Shown: piece after piece, positions 3,772-59,217 of the stretch
How positions within the stretch are numbered: the first letter of the stretch is position 1
Layout: each line of letters opens with the position of its first letter
Virus record (IMG/VR): IMGVR_UViG_3300048672_000219
Coordinates: 1 to 64,000 of that record
DNA length: 64,000 nt
Strand: one strand, 5' to 3'
From: a virus
Position numbers and translations under genes: made by a program
Notes under the pieces: model-generated
What the model was told of the DNA's origin: nothing
Databases searched by the model: none
What the model saw: only the letters and a program-made list of their open reading frames with translations

Positions 3772-6700
3772 TTATAGTTTGCAGCTTTCACAATCATCTT
3801 CTACCTTCAAGCCAGCGGCAGTGTTTGTGTAATACTTTGTCTTCATGCCGCACTTAATACGATAGAACCAATTAGATAGCAACTCTTTCGCACTAATTTG
3901 CTTTGGCTTACCTTCTTCAAATTGACGGTAATCGTCTGCGCTGATAGCTTGCCCACAGAACTTTTGGAAAATCGCATACATCTCAATCAGGTCTTTAGTT
4001 GCCACATCGTAAGCAGACTGATAGAAGCCTTTGAGCTTCTCCAAATCTGGTGCCAAGAATACAGTTTTGTTTGTACCAGAAGTTTTTACCACAACAAGTT
4101 CACGCACAGGGTACAGTGAATTAGTAGTGTTACCAGCAATGCTGCTACTCTCAACCGGCATGAATGCTTCTAACACACTGTTACGCATACCGTACAACTT
4201 AATCTCTTCTCGCAACCCTTCCCAATCCAGCAGCAACGGTTGATCCATAATATTGTCCACATGTTTTGCATACGTGTCAATTGGCAACCAGCCTTCTGCA
4301 TACTTAGTTTTGTCAAACCATTCGCACTTACCGCGTTCCTTTGCCAAACGCACAGAGGCTTTATGAAGATAAAAACTGTGCATTTCTGCCAAGCGGTGCA
4401 TGTAAGCTTTACCTTCCGTACTGTCGTAAGTCAGCCCCTTAGTTGCCATGTCGTGAGCTAGGTTTGTGATACCAATACCAGCAGAGCGACGAGCTTGTGC
4501 AGTACGTTTAAGATGGTGGAACGGGTAATCCATAATACTAATTACATTGTCCACCATCTTCAGAGCCAGATAAGCCGTTTCTTCATAATCCTCTGGAGCC
4601 ACCTTACCGGCTACAATTGCTGCCAAATTGCAAAGACCAATTTCTCCAGTTGCTTCTTCTGAATATAAGTCTGTGACATTCTTATATTCATTTGTCGGTA
4701 GGCCGATTTCTTGGCATTGTCCTGTCAGAATACCATTGAACATTCCCAAGTGACGTTTATGCTCAGTAAAGCAGTACGTGTCGTCGTAACGACCTTCATC
4801 AATAACACTTTCAATCTTAATAAACTGAGAGCATTCTCGGTTAGGTCGATGGCTTGTCACAATCAGTCTACGAGTTTTAAGTCCCATATCTGCAAGTTTA
4901 CTCAATCCATCGTTGCCAATCAGAAGACGATAAGAAGTTTTGCATTGATACATTTTCTTTTGACCCGTCCCATCATTTGCGGGAAGTGGTCGCATAGCTG
5001 CTTTCGCATTCATGGTAACTTTAGAGCGAACACCTGTAGTTTGCAACATCATTTGCACTTCTTTTAAAAACTCTGGCTCAACGCTGCCAATTTGGTAAGA
5101 TTGAGTATTTCCATTTACAGAAACTGTTCCATCTGAATCCATCAAACCAGCCAGCCATTCAAGCCGAGATTTGATTGAGTACTGACAATCCGGTACAAAA
5201 AACTTTTCTTTCAATTTAGTCGTGTGAGCATAAATTCGATCTTGATTTGGTTGAACAATCTTATCTACAAATATGTCCTTCAACTCATCAAAAATGGCTT
5301 TCTTTTCGCCGTAAAAATACAGACGCTGTTTGTTCCCAACCACACAACCATCACCAGAGTAGAATCCGTTTGCATAAGCATGGTCTAGCTCAAGAGTTCC
5401 CTCGATGATGGGCAGATCAAACTTAATCAGTTTATCGCCTTTTTGCAAATCTTTTGCCCGTTTTTCAATTGTCCAAGTGGTTCCACCTGTATTTCTTACA
5501 GACAGATAAAACTTGTGATCTTCCGTGCATTCCAACTCAAAACCATCCTTTGTTACAACACGCAGAAGTTTCCGGTTCTCACCAGTCTTAACCACATCTA
5601 CCAAAGACCACTCTTTACCGTTCCAAATCTCTACTTTTTGATCGCGTAGGGATGAAATCTCTTTGTAACCATCTTTAGTAAGAATGCGAGTTTCTGGTGC
5701 CACACATAAATTGCTGCTCCAAATCGTGTCCTTAAATGGTGTATGTCGATTCATTTCATAAGTGTTGTGTTCATACATACGACCAGTCTCTTGTTGCATA
5801 CGCAGAAACTCAAGAGCCAGCTTACGAGCATTGATAAACTTCCGCTTACCAGTGGTAGCATACTTCTCATAAAGTTCTACAAAACCTTTGTAGTCGTCAG
5901 AGTACATTTTCTTGTACAGGTCTGGTGCAGCTTTAAAACTAATCAGCATCCACTTCTCATTCTTTGCAGCCTTCTCTGCAAAATACGGATGGTATCCAAA
6001 ACTATAGTCAATGCCGCCAATCTTTTGCTTTGCTACAGTGGTGGGATGACGCAAACGCAACAGAGTTTCCACTTCAGGGTCAAGGCAATTAAAATGCACA
6101 GTAGCAGCACCACCACGACCACCTTGTAGGTTAGCGTGTACAGCCGCCTCAGTGGCACGATAGTAGGGCAGTTTGCCAGAATGCTTGATCGTATTGTTTC
6201 GCACTCCATCACCTTTACTGCGAGTCTCAATGTAGCCACCAATACCAGCACTAGCACAAGTCATAGTGTAAGCAATGTGATCCCCCGCAGCCAAGCTACC
6301 AGCATCGTCACCGGACTTAAACACGCAGCAAGAAGCATAGCTTCGTTTCTCAGTGCCAAGATTTACAATGTTAGGCGTTGGTGCATTAATATTGCTTTCA
6401 CTAAACTTCTTGTAATACTTAATAACTTCTTCAACTCGCGTACCTACAGGCTCATCTTTGCATACACCCAAAGCCATGCGCATCCATACAAATGCAGGAG
6501 ACTCTAGTGCAATATTCTTTTCAATATCTCGCAGAGCATACTTAGTAGAGATTTGATGAATTACCGAATGCACACTGTTCAAGTCTTTATTATGGTCAAT
6601 TACACCTTGCAGAATATTCAGTTCGTAATCCGAGTAGCCCATGTTTTCCCACAGACCAGACACAACCATCTTATGATACATTTCTGGCATTGTTGGGATA

Positions 6701-10296: not shown

Positions 10297-10833
10297 CTAT
10301 TCTACACTCCTAAAAATAGCTTCCACGTTTTTTTTACGTTTCTTCTTGCTGCCATTGTCGAAGAATCCATAATCTTCGCAGAATGTAATTATATCATCAA
10401 CAGACTCTTCTTTGTCAATACGAATGACTTCTTTTAGCATTTGTGCTTCAGAGAAATCAATTGACATCTTCTCAGCGTAACTCTTAGTTTTATGGCAAGG
10501 CTTACAGGCCAGCACCCAATTGTTATTACAATCAAGAAGGTTCTTCAGAAACTGGTGAGACTCTTCCCATGTATTGCACGAACCAGCTCGTTGTACATGG
10601 TCTACTTCCAAATGACTTGCTGCAAAACTATTCTTGCAATAATGACAGATGCCAAGAGACTTTGCCCGTCCTGTGTAGCCTTTAGGGGGCTTTACAAGCT
10701 GTGCAGACTTCCACTTGAGCTTTGCAGGGTATCTTGACCAAAGCAAGCGCAGATGCCCTCGCAAATATGTAAAGAAGGCTGTTTGATTCTTCCAAATGTC
10801 GGGAAAGAGTTCCCAAGGTTCTTTACTCGCCAT
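10297..10833 (-). CDS. HNH endonuclease family protein
   Basis: CHYC...EVDHV...LACKPCHKTKS. Confidence 0.8.
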   Translation of the reverse strand: MASKEPWELFPDIWKNQTAFFTYLRGHLRLLWSRYPAKLKWKSAQLVKPPKGYTGRAKSLGICHYCKNSFAASHLEVDHVQRAGSCNTWEESHQFLKNLLDCNNNWVLACKPCHKTKSYAEKMSIDFSEAQMLKEVIRIDKEESVDDIITFCEDYGFFDNGSKKKRKKNVEAIFRSVE

Positions 10834-48295: not shown

Positions 48296-48364
48296 ATAGA
48301 AGCCGAAATAAATTGTTGTTTATGTGCAACGTTTAAATTGTCTTTATATAGAAGCCGAAATAAA
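48296..48364 (+). repeat. 17-bp direct repeat, two copies
   Basis: ATAGAAGCCGAAATAAA at 48296 and 48348. Confidence 0.85.
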
Positions 48365-48410
48365 CAACCGTCCTAGAGGCGGTTTGTGCATTGTGAAAGG
48401 ATTGTGTTGT

Positions 48411-49112
48411 ATGAATGAGCATTATGTGTATATGGTAAAACTCGGTGATGAGGTTGTGTACGTCGGAAGTGGAAAAGGTGATAGGTACAAGCATGTAACC
48501 AGCGGTAGAAGTCACAACGAATCTTTGAACTTATTACATAGGCAAGGTATTGCTGTTGTGCAAGAGTTTGAATATGAGGGCTTAACTGAGATGACAGCTA
48601 GAGTGCTAGAGCAAGAGTTAATCGACAAGTACAAACCTCTGTACAATAAAGGTAAGGCAGCGAACGAGGAAAAGAAAGCTTTACACAAAGAACTTAGTGA
48701 CGAACTTAAAAGAATCCGTGAGAGTGCCCAGCCTACGGAGTATGCCAGATACATGGCTAAAGCTTTGTTTGCATTGTGGAAAGCTACCGGAAACTATCAT
48801 ATCTTGCAAGCATCTTTCGCAGTATCAAGAGCTAACCCAGATTCTAAGATAGTGATTACCCAGAATGAGCTATCAGAGTTTGTCAGCAAGTATCAAAATC
48901 AATTCAAAGACAAGATGTTCTTTATGCAATGTAAATCCTCTGTCGGTCAAGAAGTTTCTTATATAACAAGTGTGGATGAAATCTTAGATGAGATCAATAG
49001 AGAAGAATCAGCGCAAATAAACTTTATGCACAGACAAGCAAAGAATTTTAACGATTTTGTGCGGTTACAAAATAAAGCTTTGTCTTTGCGCGGGCAGGGT
49101 GTACTATTCTAA
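48411..49112 (+). CDS. GIY-YIG nuclease domain protein (N-terminal domain)
   Basis: HYVYMVK...VVYVGSGKGDRYKH...GRSHN..LN...LEQELI....PLYN, closely similar to the C-terminal domain of 38306-39361; start taken as the ATG after AAGGA. Confidence 0.75.
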   Translation: MNEHYVYMVKLGDEVVYVGSGKGDRYKHVTSGRSHNESLNLLHRQGIAVVQEFEYEGLTEMTARVLEQELIDKYKPLYNKGKAANEEKKALHKELSDELKRIRESAQPTEYARYMAKALFALWKATGNYHILQASFAVSRANPDSKIVITQNELSEFVSKYQNQFKDKMFFMQCKSSVGQEVSYITSVDEILDEINREESAQINFMHRQAKNFNDFVRLQNKALSLRGQGVLF

Positions 49113-49647
49113 GTATGCTTAACTTTTAAAGGAGAAACACAATGCAAATAATGCTAAATGACGAGCAAGCCGACCAGTTCATGGCTCAAATGCTAATGAA
49201 TGATTACCAGTCAATCAAGAATGGCGAGTGGTCGGAAGATTGCAAGCGCTTCCTACCAGCATACGAACTGTTGTTCGAGTCCTATCTAACTCAAAAGCAG
49301 ATATGGGAAATTAAACAATGATTATCGGCAAAACAGATCAACAGATACACGAAGCCCGTCAGAAACGATTAGAGCGCTTATACAAGCAAGATAAGCGGGT
49401 GTTCCTATGGTGGCCTAGAAAGCTAATAGACGGGCGTATAGCGTGGCTAGAATGGGCTGAGAAAGACTACATGGTGATTGAAAATGCCTAGATTAGCTGT
49501 GCAGCTAATAAGCCCATAATAGCTAATGCACGCTGTTGCTAAAATGAGACAGACAACTAATTTGTATGTTTTGTGCAAATAGGGCTTGCATTCTGCTCTG
49601 ATCGGTGTAGAATAGAACTTATTCGATAACGCAACGGAGCAAATATT

Positions 49648-49800
49648 ATGAGTGCATGGAATTTGGGTTACAAGGAAGCAATGAATGATTGTGGATCAAT
49701 CTACAACAATCCTTTCAAGTACGGTGAAAGTGGCTATGCTGATTGGATAGCAGGCTATGAAGCACGAATTATTGAAGAAACCGAACGGATGGGTGCATAA
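49648..49800 (+). CDS. 50-aa Rmf-like protein (below the ORF-track cutoff)
   Basis: MSAWNLGYKEAMNDCGSIYNNPFKYGESGYADWIAGYEA...; GGAG RBS; promoter just upstream. Confidence 0.5.
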   Translation: MSAWNLGYKEAMNDCGSIYNNPFKYGESGYADWIAGYEARIIEETERMGA

Positions 49801-49980
49801 TTATGAAAACCTTCTCTTTCGATACCTTCGCAGCTAACGGCAAATTCCTGAAAGTGGTTCGCGTAGAAGCCGCTCTCCGTTCGGAAGCTAAAGCAATTGC
49901 AGGGGCAATGGACGGTGTTGCTAAGGCTGTATGCACTAGCGTTGCTTAATGAGTTACAGGCCACAAGCGGGACATGTGAC

Positions 49981-50006
49981 GCCACCTTCGGGTGGCTTTG
50001 TTGTTT
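49981..50006 (+). terminator. Intrinsic terminator at the end of the early genes
   Basis: GCCACC-TTCG-GGTGGC-TTTGTTGTTT. Confidence 0.8.
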
Positions 50007-50024
50007 GTGCGGTATGTATCTAAA

Positions 50025-50110
50025 TAAGAACTATTCTCATCTACTATCAGTATTCTATATGAGAATCATTCTCAATACGCTGCTGTAATCCTTAATAAGA
50101 ACTATTCTCA
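50025..50110. promoter_or_regulatory. Three Fur-box-like sites
   Basis: TAAGAACTATTCTCA (50025), TGAGAATCATTCTCA (50060, perfect 7-1-7 palindrome), TAAGAACTATTCTCA (50096). Confidence 0.6.
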
Positions 50111-50824
50111 ATTGGCAGTCTGTTACACATCCACTCGCCTCCCTTCTTACCTTCCCCGATCTGTCCTCCAAAAGTCATCTCGACAATGCCTCTTCGCCAG
50201 TGCCAGAATCCTTATTTAGAATGAACGTTCAGTCTTAGTAGACCAGTCGTCTACAACAAGCCAGCAATTATCCGCAGCGAACATACGAGCATAGCGAGTA
50301 GACCCTTGCCAATGACAGATTTCCAGCAGCATGGGAACGTGGATAGGAAGCGAATACAAGCCGCTGGTGAGGATTTTGCAGAGGTGGCAATGGGGGTGGT
50401 AGCGTGGAGGGTGGATAGGGGCTGTAACGGCTCATTTTCAGGAAGCCGAGATATCATGCTGGTGAATGGGGAATTGAGTGTAAAAAGGCGCTAAAGTGAA
50501 AATCCTTATCAACGATTGGCCTTTAGATGTAGCGGGTTTGCGACAGAAATACCCTATCAAAAGTGATTTTGAGGGCAATATCAAATATTTTGTTGACAGA
50601 GTGATCGGGATGTGGTATGATAGGGGCGTGGTTACACAACACTCGCGTTACTGGCTCATTAGATATTCTTATCAAACATACAATAAATATTTGCCATAAA
50701 GTGACTTCCAGAAAAAATTATTTTTAAAAATTTGAGAAAATATTTTAGAAAACTCTTGCGCATAAAATAGCAGTGATATATAATGTCTATATTAGTTGGA
50801 AATTATTCTGCAAAGGAGGATGAA

Positions 50825-51484
50825 ATGAAGAAACTTATAGGCTACTGTAGGGTCTCCACGGAACGTCAATCGAACGTCCGAAACGGTCTTTTAGCGCAGC
50901 GAGAAGAGATTTTAAGGTTCGCAAAGACGCACGGATACGAGGTCATAAGTATCGTTGAAGAGTCAATTTCGGGTAAATATGGTCTGGAATACCGCCCTAT
51001 TTTGTCCGAAGCAATTGAACAAGCAAACAAGATTGGAGCAACAATTGTTGTCTCAAAACTTGATCGTTTTAGCCGTGATGCTTTGTTCGTAATGCAGCTT
51101 ATGAAAACGAAATTGAAGTTTGTTGTGGCAGAGTTGGGAGAGGAAATCACGCCGTTCATGTTGCATATTTATTGTGTCTGTGCAGAACAAGAACGGGTGG
51201 TTATTGGCAAACGTACAAAAGCCGGACTTGAGCAAGTAAAAGCCAAGGGTGTGGTTCTGGGCAATAAAAAGAATCTCGATGTTGCTGGAAAGAAAGGCGC
51301 AGTGGCTACAGCGGTGATGGCAGACAAGTTTGCAGACATTATGAAACCAATTGCAAAGCCTATGTTGGAGTCTGGTATGTCCCTTCGTGCTGTAGCAAAA
51401 GCACTAAATGATAAGGAAGTTAAAACTGCACGTGGTGGGGTGTGGACTGCTCAGACTGTAGCCAACATCCGGTCTCGGTGGTAA
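50825..51484 (+). CDS. Serine recombinase (resolvase catalytic domain plus short recombinase DNA-binding domain)
   Basis: GYCRVST..Q, E.ISG..RP.L, KLDRFSR, AEQER..I..RTKAGL, SLRAVAKALN...KTARGGVW. Confidence 0.92.
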   Translation: MKKLIGYCRVSTERQSNVRNGLLAQREEILRFAKTHGYEVISIVEESISGKYGLEYRPILSEAIEQANKIGATIVVSKLDRFSRDALFVMQLMKTKLKFVVAELGEEITPFMLHIYCVCAEQERVVIGKRTKAGLEQVKAKGVVLGNKKNLDVAGKKGAVATAVMADKFADIMKPIAKPMLESGMSLRAVAKALNDKEVKTARGGVWTAQTVANIRSRW

Positions 51485-51539
51485 TCAAGAAGCTACTCAA
51501 ATCTATTCGGTTTGGGTGGCTTTAATTTTAACCAGACTA

Positions 51540-52001
51540 TTAACTATTTAACAGTATGTCATCAATAGTCTTCAATGTATTTGAAACAGACTTAGCATAC
51601 CATTTCTTACCTCTGGCTGTTTTCACTTCCATCTCATTTAGGTAATCAGCTATTTCTCTATAGACCAAACCCATTTCACGCATTGGTATAAGATATAGTG
51701 ATACACTTTTTGCAAAATCTACTTTCTCTTTCTGTATCTGAGCATTTGCCAATTCTCTAGCTTTTTCTCCATGCAGAGAAATTTTAGGATTCGCCATACC
51801 GTGAAGTTTTCCTTGAGACTTAGCTCTTGCAAACCCTTCTTTAGTCAATTGCGCATGGTTGTCTCTTCGTTTCCATCCACCATCATGTACTTTGTTATGG
51901 CACTCACCACACAGAGGTATCGTCCTAGTCCCTCCCATACTTTTAGGAATTACATGGTGGTCTTCTGTAGCAGGTTTATCACATTCAAAACAATAGTTCA
52001 T
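51540..52001 (-). CDS. HNH nuclease fused to a serine-recombinase-like C-terminal DNA-binding region
   Basis: CFEC...HHVIPKSMGG...LCGECHNKVH, then TKEGFARAKSQG...YREIADYLN...KTARGKKW. Confidence 0.75.
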   Translation of the reverse strand: MNYCFECDKPATEDHHVIPKSMGGTRTIPLCGECHNKVHDGGWKRRDNHAQLTKEGFARAKSQGKLHGMANPKISLHGEKARELANAQIQKEKVDFAKSVSLYLIPMREMGLVYREIADYLNEMEVKTARGKKWYAKSVSNTLKTIDDILLNS

Positions 52002-52047
52002 ATTTCCCTTCCCATAAAAGAAAGGGAGCACAAAGGCTCCCTGTTGA

Positions 52048-52275
52048 TTACATTTTTCTTACTTTAGAAATCAAGTCTTGCAACTGAGCAATTACTTCTT
52101 TCTTGAATTCCACTTTAAACTCATCTCGTTTAATACTTCCTTTCTCTACATTCCGAAGCTCCTTAGAACACCATGCAACACTACAACCTAGTTGTTGGGA
52201 TATTTCTGCAAAGGACATGCCCTCTTGTCGCATTCGTTTTGCTTCCTCAATATCAAATTTTCGTACATTAGTCAT
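52048..52275 (-). CDS. Small HTH DNA-binding protein
   Basis: AKRMRQEGMSFAEISQQLGCSVAWCSKEL. Confidence 0.75.
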   Translation of the reverse strand: MTNVRKFDIEEAKRMRQEGMSFAEISQQLGCSVAWCSKELRNVEKGSIKRDEFKVEFKKEVIAQLQDLISKVRKM

Positions 52276-52302
52276 ATTACTCCTTTCGTGTAATTAACAG
52301 AT

Positions 52303-52331
52303 ATTATAGCACAAGAGTTCAGTTTTGTCAA
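52303..52331 (-). promoter_or_regulatory. sigma70 promoter for the HTH and HNH-fusion genes
   Basis: TTGACA-N17-TATAAT. Confidence 0.8.
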
Positions 52332-52627
52332 ATCTCCTCTACATATGTATCATCATTCTTTAGGATTCCTTTTGGATTATTATCAATCCAGATAATACCA
52401 TTCTTCCTATACCCATGCATCTTCAAGAATTTCTTCTTAGCCATACCAGAAGTGTAATAAACAAGGTTGTTAGGAAACTGGCGAACAACCACTTCAGCTT
52501 CATCCCCATGACGTGCTGTAACAACAATCAATGGTTGATCGTTCTCATTAGCAATCCTCACCACTTGCTCCCAGAATATAGGATTGTCCGTGTAAGTACC
52601 ATCATAGTCTAGTGCGATTGTTTTCAT
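52328..52627 (-). CDS. Minimal HAD-superfamily phosphatase
   Basis: IALDYDGT, VVTAR, KK, WIDN motifs. Confidence 0.75.
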   Translation of the reverse strand: MKTIALDYDGTYTDNPIFWEQVVRIANENDQPLIVVTARHGDEAEVVVRQFPNNLVYYTSGMAKKKFLKMHGYRKNGIIWIDNNPKGILKNDDTYVEEI

Positions 52628-52775
52628 CGTTGTTTCTCCTTTAATTGAAAATCGGCCACTTCTTTTAGTTGTCCCAACATCCTACTCATTTCAGCAGGAG
52701 TAGTGTTATGAATCCCCTCCAGCATAAGCTGCAATTTCTTCTTAAAGTAGTCGGCATCTAGCCCATACTCATTGT

Positions 52776-53381
52776 TCATTTCTTCTCCTTTGTCAATTCA
52801 TAATAACGCTTCAAGAATTTCTTATATGCCATCTTACTACTCCAAGGTTTAATCACCTCATCCAGAGGCTTTACGTTGCGGTACATGCGATCAAGTTTGG
52901 TCGTAGGAGACAAATCCCTACGCTCTGTAACAAATGCAATAGTGTCTGCCAGCTTGATTTCCTTATCAAATGGAAACTGAATACCAAAACGCTTTGCCAT
53001 GTCTGCTTCTAGCTTGTGTTCGATTTCACTATAAGCTGGAATCATAACTTTCAAGGGTTTATTAATGTCCTTCATAAAACCCTCTACGGCATCATGCAGC
53101 AAACCATCCAATGCTAGGTGCTCTGGTACAATATAACTTACGAGAACGCAATGCTGTGCAACACTCATAAATTCAGACGTATGCCCATTACTTCGGCTTT
53201 CACGAGACAAGCCTAGAGCAATGTCTTCAATATCATACACAGAGTTCTCAGGATTGGCAAAGTCAATGAAATGCCCATTCATAAGCTGCATAACAGGTTT
53301 TAGTTTGTTTGTGTCAACCAACAGTGTTCTCCTTAAAATTAACAATACAAACATTATCACACATAAAAGAAAAACCTGCAA
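52776..53381 (-). CDS. HD-domain phosphohydrolase (5'-deoxynucleotidase-like)
   Basis: DIA..LS...R.NGHT...SVAQHC...LLHDAVE...D...P.K...K.AD; true start probably further downstream. Confidence 0.8.
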   Translation of the reverse strand: MQVFLLCVIMFVLLILRRTLLVDTNKLKPVMQLMNGHFIDFANPENSVYDIEDIALGLSRESRSNGHTSEFMSVAQHCVLVSYIVPEHLALDGLLHDAVEGFMKDINKPLKVMIPAYSEIEHKLEADMAKRFGIQFPFDKEIKLADTIAFVTERRDLSPTTKLDRMYRNVKPLDEVIKPWSSKMAYKKFLKRYYELTKEKK

Positions 53382-57341: not shown

Positions 57342-57416
57342 TCCCCGTTAGTTTAACATGGTAAAATCTCGCCTTGTACGCGAGCATAGCGGTTTCGAGC
57401 ACTGCACGGGGAACCA
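57342..57416 (+). tRNA. tRNA-Thr(UGU), somewhat atypical
   Basis: TCCCCGT/ACGGGGA-A-CCA; anticodon arm CTCGC-CTTGTAC-GCGAG; T arm GCGGT-TTCGAGC-ACTGC. Confidence 0.75.
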
Positions 57417-57838: not shown

Positions 57839-57928
57839 GGAAGATTGGCTGAGAGGTTTAAGGCAGCACTCTTGAAAAGTGTCGAACTTTAAAAGGTTCC
57901 GTCCGTTCAAATCGGACATCTTCCGCCA
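57839..57928 (+). tRNA. tRNA-Ser(UGA)
   Basis: GGAAGAT/ATCTTCC-G-CCA; GCACT-CTTGAAA-AGTGT anticodon arm; long variable arm. Confidence 0.9.
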
Positions 57929-58260: not shown

Positions 58261-59217
58261 ATGGGTAAAGACAATATAAAGCGTACAAATGAGTACATTA
58301 TTGACAAGTCAAAAGAGTTACATGGAGAGCATACTTACGGGTATGATAAACTTGAGTACATCAACACTAAGAGTAATATAATATTGCTGTGCAATAAATG
58401 CAATGATTATTTCAGCGTCACGGCAGGAGCACACGTTGGAAGCAGAAGAGTAGGCTGTCAAAGATGTAGTGCAGAACGTAGAACCAAAGCTCAGACAGGA
58501 AGTAAAGAGCAAATGATTGCAAAAGCATTGTTAAATCACCCTCACGGAGCTTTCAATTATGATCGAGTAGAGTACAAAACGGCGAGGATTAAAGTTGAAA
58601 TAGGCTGCAATACATGCGGGGTGTGGTTTTGGCAAGAGCCACATCAACATACAATAGGTGTTGGTTGCAAGAATTGCAGAAACATTAAATTGGCAAAAGA
58701 CAGAAGTCATTCCAAAGAACAATTTATAGAGGAAGCTATCAAGATCACCGGAGATAAGTATGATTATAGCTTAGTAGAGTACAAGAATGCAAGAACATAT
58801 GCAGAGATAATCTGCAACGACTGTGGATCACATTTCAAGAAGAAGCCTACTGAGATATTGAATGGTCAGGGCTGCAAATGCCACAACAAAGGTGGATATG
58901 GATATGATCCAAAACAAGCTGGAATTCTTTATGTGCTAGAATGCGGAGACATAACTAAAATCGGTATTACAAATAAAAGATTGTCAAGTAGAATAAAAGC
59001 GGTAAGTTCTTCGTTTGGTGCAAAATTTAAAGAAATTAAAACTTATAATCTTGAAGGTCAATTCTGCACCGACTTAGAGACACAGTTGCTAATTGAATTA
59101 CGAAGTAAATATAGAAATCCTATTCAAAAGTTTGATGGGTACACAGAATGTTTTTACTATGTAGATAGAGCAAAATTACTGAATAGAATTGAAGAATTGA
59201 TTAAGGAGAATAAATGA
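58261..59217 (+). CDS. Free-standing putative homing endonuclease (DUF723-like Zn repeats plus C-terminal GIY-YIG-like domain)
   Basis: Three YDY..VEY....I.C..C..F...H..G.GC repeats; ILYVLE...KIGITN...R...LE...FDGYTECF. Confidence 0.8.
   Translation: MGKDNIKRTNEYIIDKSKELHGEHTYGYDKLEYINTKSNIILLCNKCNDYFSVTAGAHVGSRRVGCQRCSAERRTKAQTGSKEQMIAKALLNHPHGAFNYDRVEYKTARIKVEIGCNTCGVWFWQEPHQHTIGVGCKNCRNIKLAKDRSHSKEQFIEEAIKITGDKYDYSLVEYKNARTYAEIICNDCGSHFKKKPTEILNGQGCKCHNKGGYGYDPKQAGILYVLECGDITKIGITNKRLSSRIKAVSSSFGAKFKEIKTYNLEGQFCTDLETQLLIELRSKYRNPIQKFDGYTECFYYVDRAKLLNRIEELIKENK

Follow-up and report, generated by a model that had tools for sequence, protein, structure and literature searches.

When a nuclease carries the DNA-binding end of a serine recombinase and is encoded beside an intact recombinase of that kind, does it act together with its neighbor, or has it taken up the recombinase part for its own spread? 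This question is raised by a locus in the first 64 kb (positions 1 to 64,000, here called the window) of an 83,454-bp IMG/VR virus record (IMGVR_UViG_3300048672_000219; completeness rating 97%). The source is a freshwater phage, and its syntenic relatives are phages of ~85-93 kb. Here, a 219-amino-acid (aa) serine recombinase on the + strand and a 153-aa open reading frame (ORF) on the - strand converge across a gap of 55 nucleotides (nt). The 153-aa protein joins an N-terminal HNH domain to a recombinase-type tail and is referred to below as the HNH-tail protein. The features on which the argument turns are the following:

50825-51484, + strand: small serine recombinase, 219 aa, with catalytic domain, helix E and a truncated recombinase-domain helix-turn-helix (HTH) tail (residues ~129-219)
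51540-52001, - strand: putative HNH-tail nuclease, 153 aa, with HNH at residues 1-~45 (nt 52001-51867) and tail at residues ~48-146 (nt 51860-51564)
51486-52035, - strand: variable cassette, with bounds set by contigs of another study that match up to 51485 and from 52036
52048-52275, - strand: HTH protein, 75 aa (Pfam HTH_38 at 7.3e-5, HTH_23 and HTH_7, all below curated cut-offs)

The HNH-tail protein combines two modules, the second of them homologous to the neighboring recombinase; it belongs to a large family, and its gene lies in an optional, replaceable cassette with defined boundaries. We consider it probable that the protein is a free-standing homing-type HNH endonuclease with a recombinase-derived targeting module.

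An HNH domain joined to a recombinase-type tail

The HNH-tail ORF extends from 51540 to 52031 (- strand), with ATG 52001 as its likely start. Pfam HNH (PF01844) was matched at residues 4-40 with 22.5 bits, above the cut-off of 21.4 (a search across the genome gave 23.3 bits), and Pfam Recombinase (PF07508) at residues 111-144 with 24.9 bits against a cut-off of 21.1, although the latter match spans just profile positions 17-50 of 102 and is accompanied by no zinc-ribbon match in the Pfam table. The Resolvase domain has no Pfam match in the HNH-tail protein, which is thus not a catalytic serine recombinase. An earlier note on this DNA, made from the letters alone, had described an intact + strand recombinase facing a - strand ORF with an N-terminal HNH domain; both are present at those places, with Pfam matches above the cut-offs.

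Across 77 HNH-tail sequences, C4, C7, H15, C31 and H35 are invariant, and H16, C34 and H39 are at least 90% conserved. These conserved zinc and catalytic ligands, a beta-beta-alpha fold in the structural model and the PF01844 match above cut-off are all as in His-Me finger nucleases. From ligand conservation and the model, the nuclease appears to be active. The closest solved HNH domains by sequence are those of IscB and McrA (E 9.6e-10 to 4.6e-6); when the family profile was compared with PDB sequences, the HNH part was matched and the tail part was not.

Sequence comparison confirmed that the C-terminal ~100 aa of the HNH-tail protein share ancestry with the part of the recombinase that begins at the end of helix E. 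BLASTP aligned recombinase residues 131-214 with HNH-tail residues 53-141 at 37% identity (E 2e-11), and global alignment of the two window tails gave 31% identity. When 77 HNH-tail proteins were compared with 51 recombinases by hhalign, the match had a probability of 99.8% and an E-value of 1.6e-27 over 97 columns; it starts inside helix E (ER..I..RTKAAL vs ..LTK.GL) and reaches the C-terminus. These results bear out the observation in the earlier note that the remainder of the ORF mirrors the recombinase from helix E on. The tail thus reads as a helix-E remnant, an arm and an HTH. At the DNA level, the tail-coding segments form a 56-nt imperfect inverted repeat (51404-51459 / 51586-51641, 71% complementary; pair I1). 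However, the two window tails, at 31-37% identity, are no more alike than the HNH-tail protein's tail and the resolvase of Escherichia phage ESCO13 (39%), and recognition of the same sites is therefore unproven.

An AF2 model of the HNH-tail protein has a mean predicted local distance difference test score (pLDDT) of 88.3. Its HNH part consists of a beta-hairpin and a helix at residues 13-38 (strands 13-16 and 27-30, helix 32-38; pLDDT ~90), and its tail of the helix-E remnant (49-62), a less confident linker and helices at 79-109, 114-123 and 136-152. Foldseek of this model against the PDB gave no match at E<=1e-3. With VIA-align, a wide search brought up three-helix HTH folds of a generic kind (best Z 7.4); the tail matches included the recombinase domain of a serine integrase (9dxd_A, Z 5.6, 68 residues) and the HTH of Tn3 resolvase (5cy1_A, Z 5.5), neither of them better than the generic HTH matches. 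Because the structure searches yield only generic HTH folds, the case for tail homology rests on sequence.

Family size and distribution

To determine the extent of the family, the HNH-tail protein was searched with phmmer against 1.84 billion representatives of 50%-identity clusters, of which 1370 matched at E<=1e-3 and 426 at E<=1e-10. Among the 150 matching clusters listed, both modules are present in 103 (median 149 aa), and HNH with another C-terminus in 45. Ten clusters that were looked up carry no informative name, with one bearing a COG1961 tag. In 50,697 GenBank phage records, 65 matched the HNH-tail protein, and none of these (0/65) covers at least 80% of the query: the matches listed span residues 50-140, where the annotation is mostly resolvase, DNA invertase or hypothetical protein, and the phages matching the tail are chiefly Phapecoctavirus. 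A pattern scan of one genome per prokaryote species returned 2 loci, which, the pattern being narrow, is weak evidence of rarity in cells; the same kind of scan returned 43 loci in viral contigs and 147 in metagenomes.

A search of full-text literature found no description of HNH joined to a serine-recombinase-type tail. Passages of a classification of His-Me finger nucleases likewise name no recombinase-type DNA-binding domain (PMC5714182).

Some members depart from the simple two-module gene. In marine and aquatic contigs, tandem HNH-tail genes (152 or 149 aa, then 137 aa) lie ~200 nt apart (L015/L119 at 4120-5181, L118 at 132-1193, L150 at 37-1113). A further protein of 902 aa (P0050) matches the recombinase catalytic domain twice and the tail three to four times along one chain, and may be either a multi-domain protein or a mis-called gene.

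An optional and replaceable cassette

Free-standing homing genes are expected to be present sporadically among syntenic relatives. Synteny was assessed in 20 loci anchored on a dNMP (deoxynucleoside monophosphate) phosphatase-like HD protein, with genes for PhoH, a Clp-like protease and HD in that order and with enough downstream sequence. The recombinase is present in all 20 loci, 1.3-4 kb downstream of the HD gene and in either orientation. By comparison, presence of an HNH gene like that of the window is sporadic: it was found in 12/20 loci, with the window-type tail in 7 and another C-terminus in 5, and in none of the remaining 8. Among the 7 tail-bearing loci, 5 have HNH then recombinase on one strand, and 2 (L050 and L052) have the two genes convergent behind an HTH gene. 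In L052 (9674-10898), which has the window layout, the recombinase ORF runs 71 nt into the convergent HNH-tail ORF; in the window, 55 nt separate the two.

In relatives, the HTH gene is followed by either an HNH-tail gene or an unrelated larger ORF. Six of the 8 loci without a window-like HNH gene were mapped, and in these the HTH gene precedes a member of another ORF family, which has a C-terminal HNH_5 domain in L048/L057 and L054/L056 (E ~1e-10); the ORFs after the HTH gene in L062 and L058 have no Pfam match. The recombinase of the L054/L056 contigs is the most similar one found (catalytic part 70% identical to that of the window); there, the place of the HNH-tail gene, with the HTH gene on one side and the convergent recombinase on the other, is taken by a gene for an unrelated protein of 351 aa, the C-terminal domain of which is HNH_5 (E 1.3e-10).

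The bounds of the cassette were also visible in natural populations. In a run from another study (run X2), depth is 253-366 on the recombinase gene, where 780 nt contain 26 differences, and 230 on the HTH gene, compared with 18 for the window-like HNH allele. One contig departs from the window at 51485, right past the recombinase stop codon, and another joins it at 52036, within the hairpin 5' of the HNH gene. At a likeness of at least 85%, depth is 11-47 on the tail-coding part and ~100-110 on the HNH-coding part, indicating that alleles differ most in the DNA-binding half. Thus, in this phage clade, the cassette is optional and replaceable and has sharp boundaries.

Adjacency to recombinase genes and tail phylogeny

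If the nuclease depends on a recombinase, the two genes are expected to occur together. Outside the window, adjacency was surveyed for 94 HNH-plus-tail ORFs in 125 loci, 73 of them distinct. A serine recombinase is directly adjacent to 9/73 distinct ORFs, to 7/27 of those with at least 1 kb on both sides and in 5/49 clusters (60% identity), so that 20/27 well-flanked members have no adjacent recombinase. On the other hand, every recombinase ORF that does occur in the flanks (11/11) is the immediate neighbor of the HNH gene, at a distance of -87 to +65 nt. Among 20 whole viral records, a Pfam Resolvase domain was found in 5, each time next to the HNH gene.

The history of the tails was examined with two trees. 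The careful one, built from 70 tails, requires 3 changes between the HNH and recombinase labels, and a single origin is allowed in 0/200 bootstrap trees; in a quick tree of 254 tails there are 6 label changes, at least 3 of them forced. Both are unrooted and sample recombinases narrowly (close relatives of the window's recombinase, plus ESCO13), so that they give no direction for the transfer of the module. The window's HNH tail is sister to the HNH tail of L050 (98/98), and its recombinase tail is sister to the recombinase tail of L050 (98/88); since each pairs with its L050 counterpart, the window pair was co-inherited without recent exchange. The earlier note had proposed a catalytic-domain swap. 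An HNH domain was indeed joined to a recombinase-type tail at some point in the history of the family, but the swap was neither local to the window phage nor recent.

Proposed mechanism and alternative explanations

The targeting module would comprise the last part of helix E together with the minor-groove arm and a small HTH, as in ~220-aa serine recombinases. In gamma-delta resolvase-DNA structures, the helix E end and the arm occupy the minor groove at the center of the site, and the HTH the adjacent major groove. Following binding of a specific DNA site by the tail, the HNH domain, joined straight to the arm, would be held near the middle of the site, about where the recombinase catalytic domain would be, and could nick or cut there. 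During mixed infection, the break would be repaired from the nuclease-bearing genome, so that the gene and its flanks are copied into the rival. The cassette would then occupy a nuclease hot spot bordered by the small HTH gene on one side and by the 3' end of the conserved recombinase gene on the other, and the tail likeness of the neighbors would reflect old, repeated shuffling of a DNA-binding module, not a working partnership in this phage.

Several points weigh against a homing nuclease of this kind. Cleavage, the target site and homing or gene conversion are steps that we infer, and the Asn that classically forms the middle of the H-N-H motif is not recognizable by eye in the family. No empty allele was found among the syntenic relatives: some gene fills the slot in every one of them. 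The 20 syntenic loci include near-identical contigs and hence represent fewer independent genomes. The population data are assembled contigs, in which rare variants are dropped and strains are summed, so that presence is visible and absence is not. A purely selfish view also leaves the frequent placement beside a serine recombinase unexplained (7/27; 11/11 adjacent). Finally, in two other lineages the tails of neighboring HNH and recombinase genes are sisters, in L164 (99/96) with 56% identity and in L010 (100/80) with 45% identity.

These last points are what a working partnership would predict, and such a partnership is the alternative closest to the proposal of the earlier note. The nuclease would act on the recombinase's own sites through its recombinase-type DNA-binding domain, either cutting a site that is vacant or has recombined, after which repair would restore the element, or blocking or steering recombination as a directionality or dominant-negative factor. 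Direct adjacency recurs in several layouts (HNH then recombinase, recombinase then HNH, and convergent), the pairs of the window and of L050 are co-inherited, and the invariable adjacency of flanking recombinases (11/11, in 5/49 clusters) together with the sister tails of L164 and L010 argues against rejecting partnership flatly. Nevertheless, we regard it as unlikely. Twenty of the 27 well-flanked members have no recombinase beside them, so that the outcome named in the earlier note as refuting its idea, common occurrence of the fusion without a recombinase, was observed in part; 8/20 syntenic relatives have the recombinase but not the window-type HNH; and the window tails are just 31-37% identical. 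The fusion also keeps only the last part of helix E, which in gamma-delta resolvase structures is not the dimer-forming part. The conserved HNH ligands, invariant across the 77 sequences, speak against a mere blocking protein. A directionality or dominant-negative role in particular is unlikely in view of these ligands, of the members without a recombinase beside them and of the relatives with the recombinase alone.

A nuclease that does not spread itself could also make use of such a tail, which would direct the HNH domain to host DNA, to a competing phage or satellite, or to a nick site for the phage's own replication or packaging. The early-type region and the consensus promoter are in keeping with such a role, and the greater variation of alleles in the tail (depth 11-47 vs ~100-110 on HNH) would fit shifting targets. 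However, the gene is optional in the clade and is swapped for other nuclease genes, which would be unusual if its function were needed, and packaging genes are not nearby; we regard this reading, too, as unlikely. It is far less probable still, to the point of being nearly dismissible, that the ORF is a functionless, decaying remnant of a duplicated recombinase gene whose 5' end was overwritten by an HNH cassette. Some loci do have a recombinase followed at once by an HNH-tail ORF (gaps of -87 to +7 nt), the layout expected after overwriting, but the intact frame, the confident model, the invariant ligands and the hundreds of clusters that keep both modules are at odds with decay.

Comparison with known systems

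The homing-type reading draws on the free-standing HNH homing endonucleases of phages, such as the T4 Mob proteins and the I-HmuI type. As in those enzymes, a small HNH module is joined to a separate sequence-reading module, and the gene is optional, lies between conserved genes, has its own translation signals and is one of several nuclease genes in the genome. DNA-binding modules of the NUMOD type are known from homing enzymes. The HNH-tail protein would instead bind DNA through the end of helix E, the arm and the HTH of a serine recombinase, and its HNH domain is N-terminal.

With the small serine recombinases (Gin, Hin, gamma-delta, Tn3) and the recombinase domain of the large integrases, the comparison concerns the tail, which shares ancestry with that of the neighboring 219-aa recombinase and passes the PF07508 cut-off over profile positions 17-50 of 102. 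It differs from both in belonging to a protein without the catalytic serine domain, which cannot recombine, and in having no zinc-ribbon domain. Zinc-finger recombinases are engineered chimeras in which catalytic and DNA-binding domains are exchanged at the helix-E/arm junction. The exchange point of the HNH-tail protein is the same, but here the recombinase DNA-binding part is kept and the catalytic part is changed.

A serine recombinase gene beside a nuclease gene that could target the recombinase's own sites also recalls, by analogy, the IS607/IS605-type pairing of the transposase TnpA with the homing nuclease TnpB (10.1101/2023.11.20.567912). Unlike in TnpA/TnpB, targeting here would be through a common protein domain and not a guide RNA, and most family members have no recombinase neighbor; no transposon ends were found. 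A more speculative proposal, which we consider improbable, is that the family is a protein-guided counterpart of TnpA-TnpB. The nuclease would borrow, and in some lineages re-copy, the recombinase's DNA-binding module to cut its vacant or recombined sites, repair restoring or spreading the recombinase-bearing segment, with the stand-alone members as escaped descendants.

The recombinase and transcription signals of the locus

The recombinase ORF extends from 50783 to 51484 (+ strand), with a likely start at ATG 50825 preceded by AAGGAGG. It matches Pfam Resolvase (PF00239) with 86.8 bits (E 2e-24), Pfam Recombinase (PF07508) with 25.4 bits over a short match, and the PHROG DNA invertase family phrog_125 (3.2e-32). 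Solved Gin, gamma-delta and Tn3 chains match it at E 1e-12 to 1e-16. Among 51 relatives, R9 and S11 are nearly invariant and R81, S83 and R84 invariant, which places the 219-aa protein within the serine recombinases (PF00239). The match at 50837-51253 is the sole PF00239 match across the 83-kb record, and no tyrosine integrase was found in the phage genome. The earlier note had thought a recombinase unexpected in an apparently lytic phage. Its presence is no oddity, given a recombinase in 20/20 syntenic loci and ~220-aa relatives in Phapecoctavirus records.

The transcription signals around the two genes are:

50756-50784, + strand: promoter-like site TTGCGC-17-TATAAT before the recombinase gene, read from sequence; with just 3/6 matches in the first hexamer, it was missed by the promoter scan
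51489-51531, + strand: predicted intrinsic terminator of the recombinase transcript, with a 15-bp stem and a U-rich tract, from folding energy
52023-52042, - strand: terminator-like hairpin between the HTH and HNH genes, with 7 pairs (5 GC) and a T-rich tail
52303-52331, - strand: consensus sigma-70-type promoter TTGACA-17-TATAAT with TG, 12/12 matches, serving the HTH/HNH unit

The HTH gene and the perfect sigma70 promoter that the earlier note had placed upstream of the HNH fusion are thus both there, the 12/12 site being at 52331-52303 and the gene at 52048-52275. The hairpin that it had described between the convergent genes (~51490-51521) also exists, but it works in one direction. In + strand RNA, the 15-bp stem at 51489-51523 has a folding energy of -21.6 kcal/mol (z -6.4) and is followed by UUUAAUUUU; in - strand RNA, the value is -8.2 kcal/mol (z -0.55). 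Being strong on the + strand and weak on the - strand, it is therefore a predicted terminator for the recombinase transcript only. The hairpin at 52023-52042, over the HNH ribosome-binding site, reaches -15.3 kcal/mol (z -1.44), which is not significant; as read from the sequence, the HNH gene has its own ribosome-binding site after this hairpin.

Other observations around the locus

Active inversion of the recombinase gene was considered, as relatives carry the recombinase in both orientations, and was rejected. The opposite-orientation recombinases are just 36-48% identical in the catalytic part, the sole long inverted repeat is the tail-derived one (51404-51459 / 51586-51641), and no inversion joint was present among contigs of four runs, in which rare forms would be invisible. 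The sign of GC skew changes at ~51.5 kb. Megablast of 50400-52700 against GenBank phages gave no match, and an Rfam search of 49500-52500 gave nothing at E<=1.

At 50020-50110, a 20-nt unit (CTAAATAAGAACTATTCTCA type) occurs three times in direct orientation with a spacing of 35-36 nt, each copy containing an AGAA...TTCT palindrome. They sit ~700 nt 5' of the recombinase gene, directly past a + strand terminator-like hairpin (49981-49996), and could be protein-binding sites. Considered as candidate res-like sites for the recombinase, they have only 2 exact copies of their 17-nt core, and 8/100 shuffles equalled this. Cover in run X2 is near nil at 50001-50202. A 14-nt match of these repeats to the HNH gene start (pairs I9 and I11) was set aside, since chance alone would be expected to give roughly one match of this kind. 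Further on, a GC-richer stretch at 50300-50470 has no Rfam match and is covered by many short contigs of several strains (85-92% identity), with a run X2 depth of 645-730 compared with 250 alongside; it is either a conserved or multi-copy element or else the 62-aa ORF at 50306-50494.

The window genome contains two HNH ORFs besides the HNH-tail gene (10297-10833, - strand, and 58261-59217, + strand). A 262-aa ORF at 48324-49112 shows GIY-YIG-like motifs by eye (YVY...YVGSG...YN) and has no match in Pfam or PHROG. On the far side of the HTH gene, a run X2 contig (depth 332) links 52622 to 52775, and the 152 nt missing from it are nearly exactly the 51-aa ORF at 52624-52779. Genes for tRNA-Thr (TGT) and tRNA-Ser (TGA) are located at 57342-57416 and 57839-57928.

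Implications

If the homing-type reading is correct, the DNA-binding arms of serine recombinases would be a natural targeting module for nucleases. The HNH-tail family, known only from uncultured phages, would then supply compact site-specific nickases or cutters of ~150 aa. The findings also raise the question of whether some recombinase/nuclease pairs act on the same sites. The repeated sharing of a module by neighboring recombinase and nuclease genes is a clear example from nature of catalytic domains being exchanged while the DNA-reading scaffold stays fixed.

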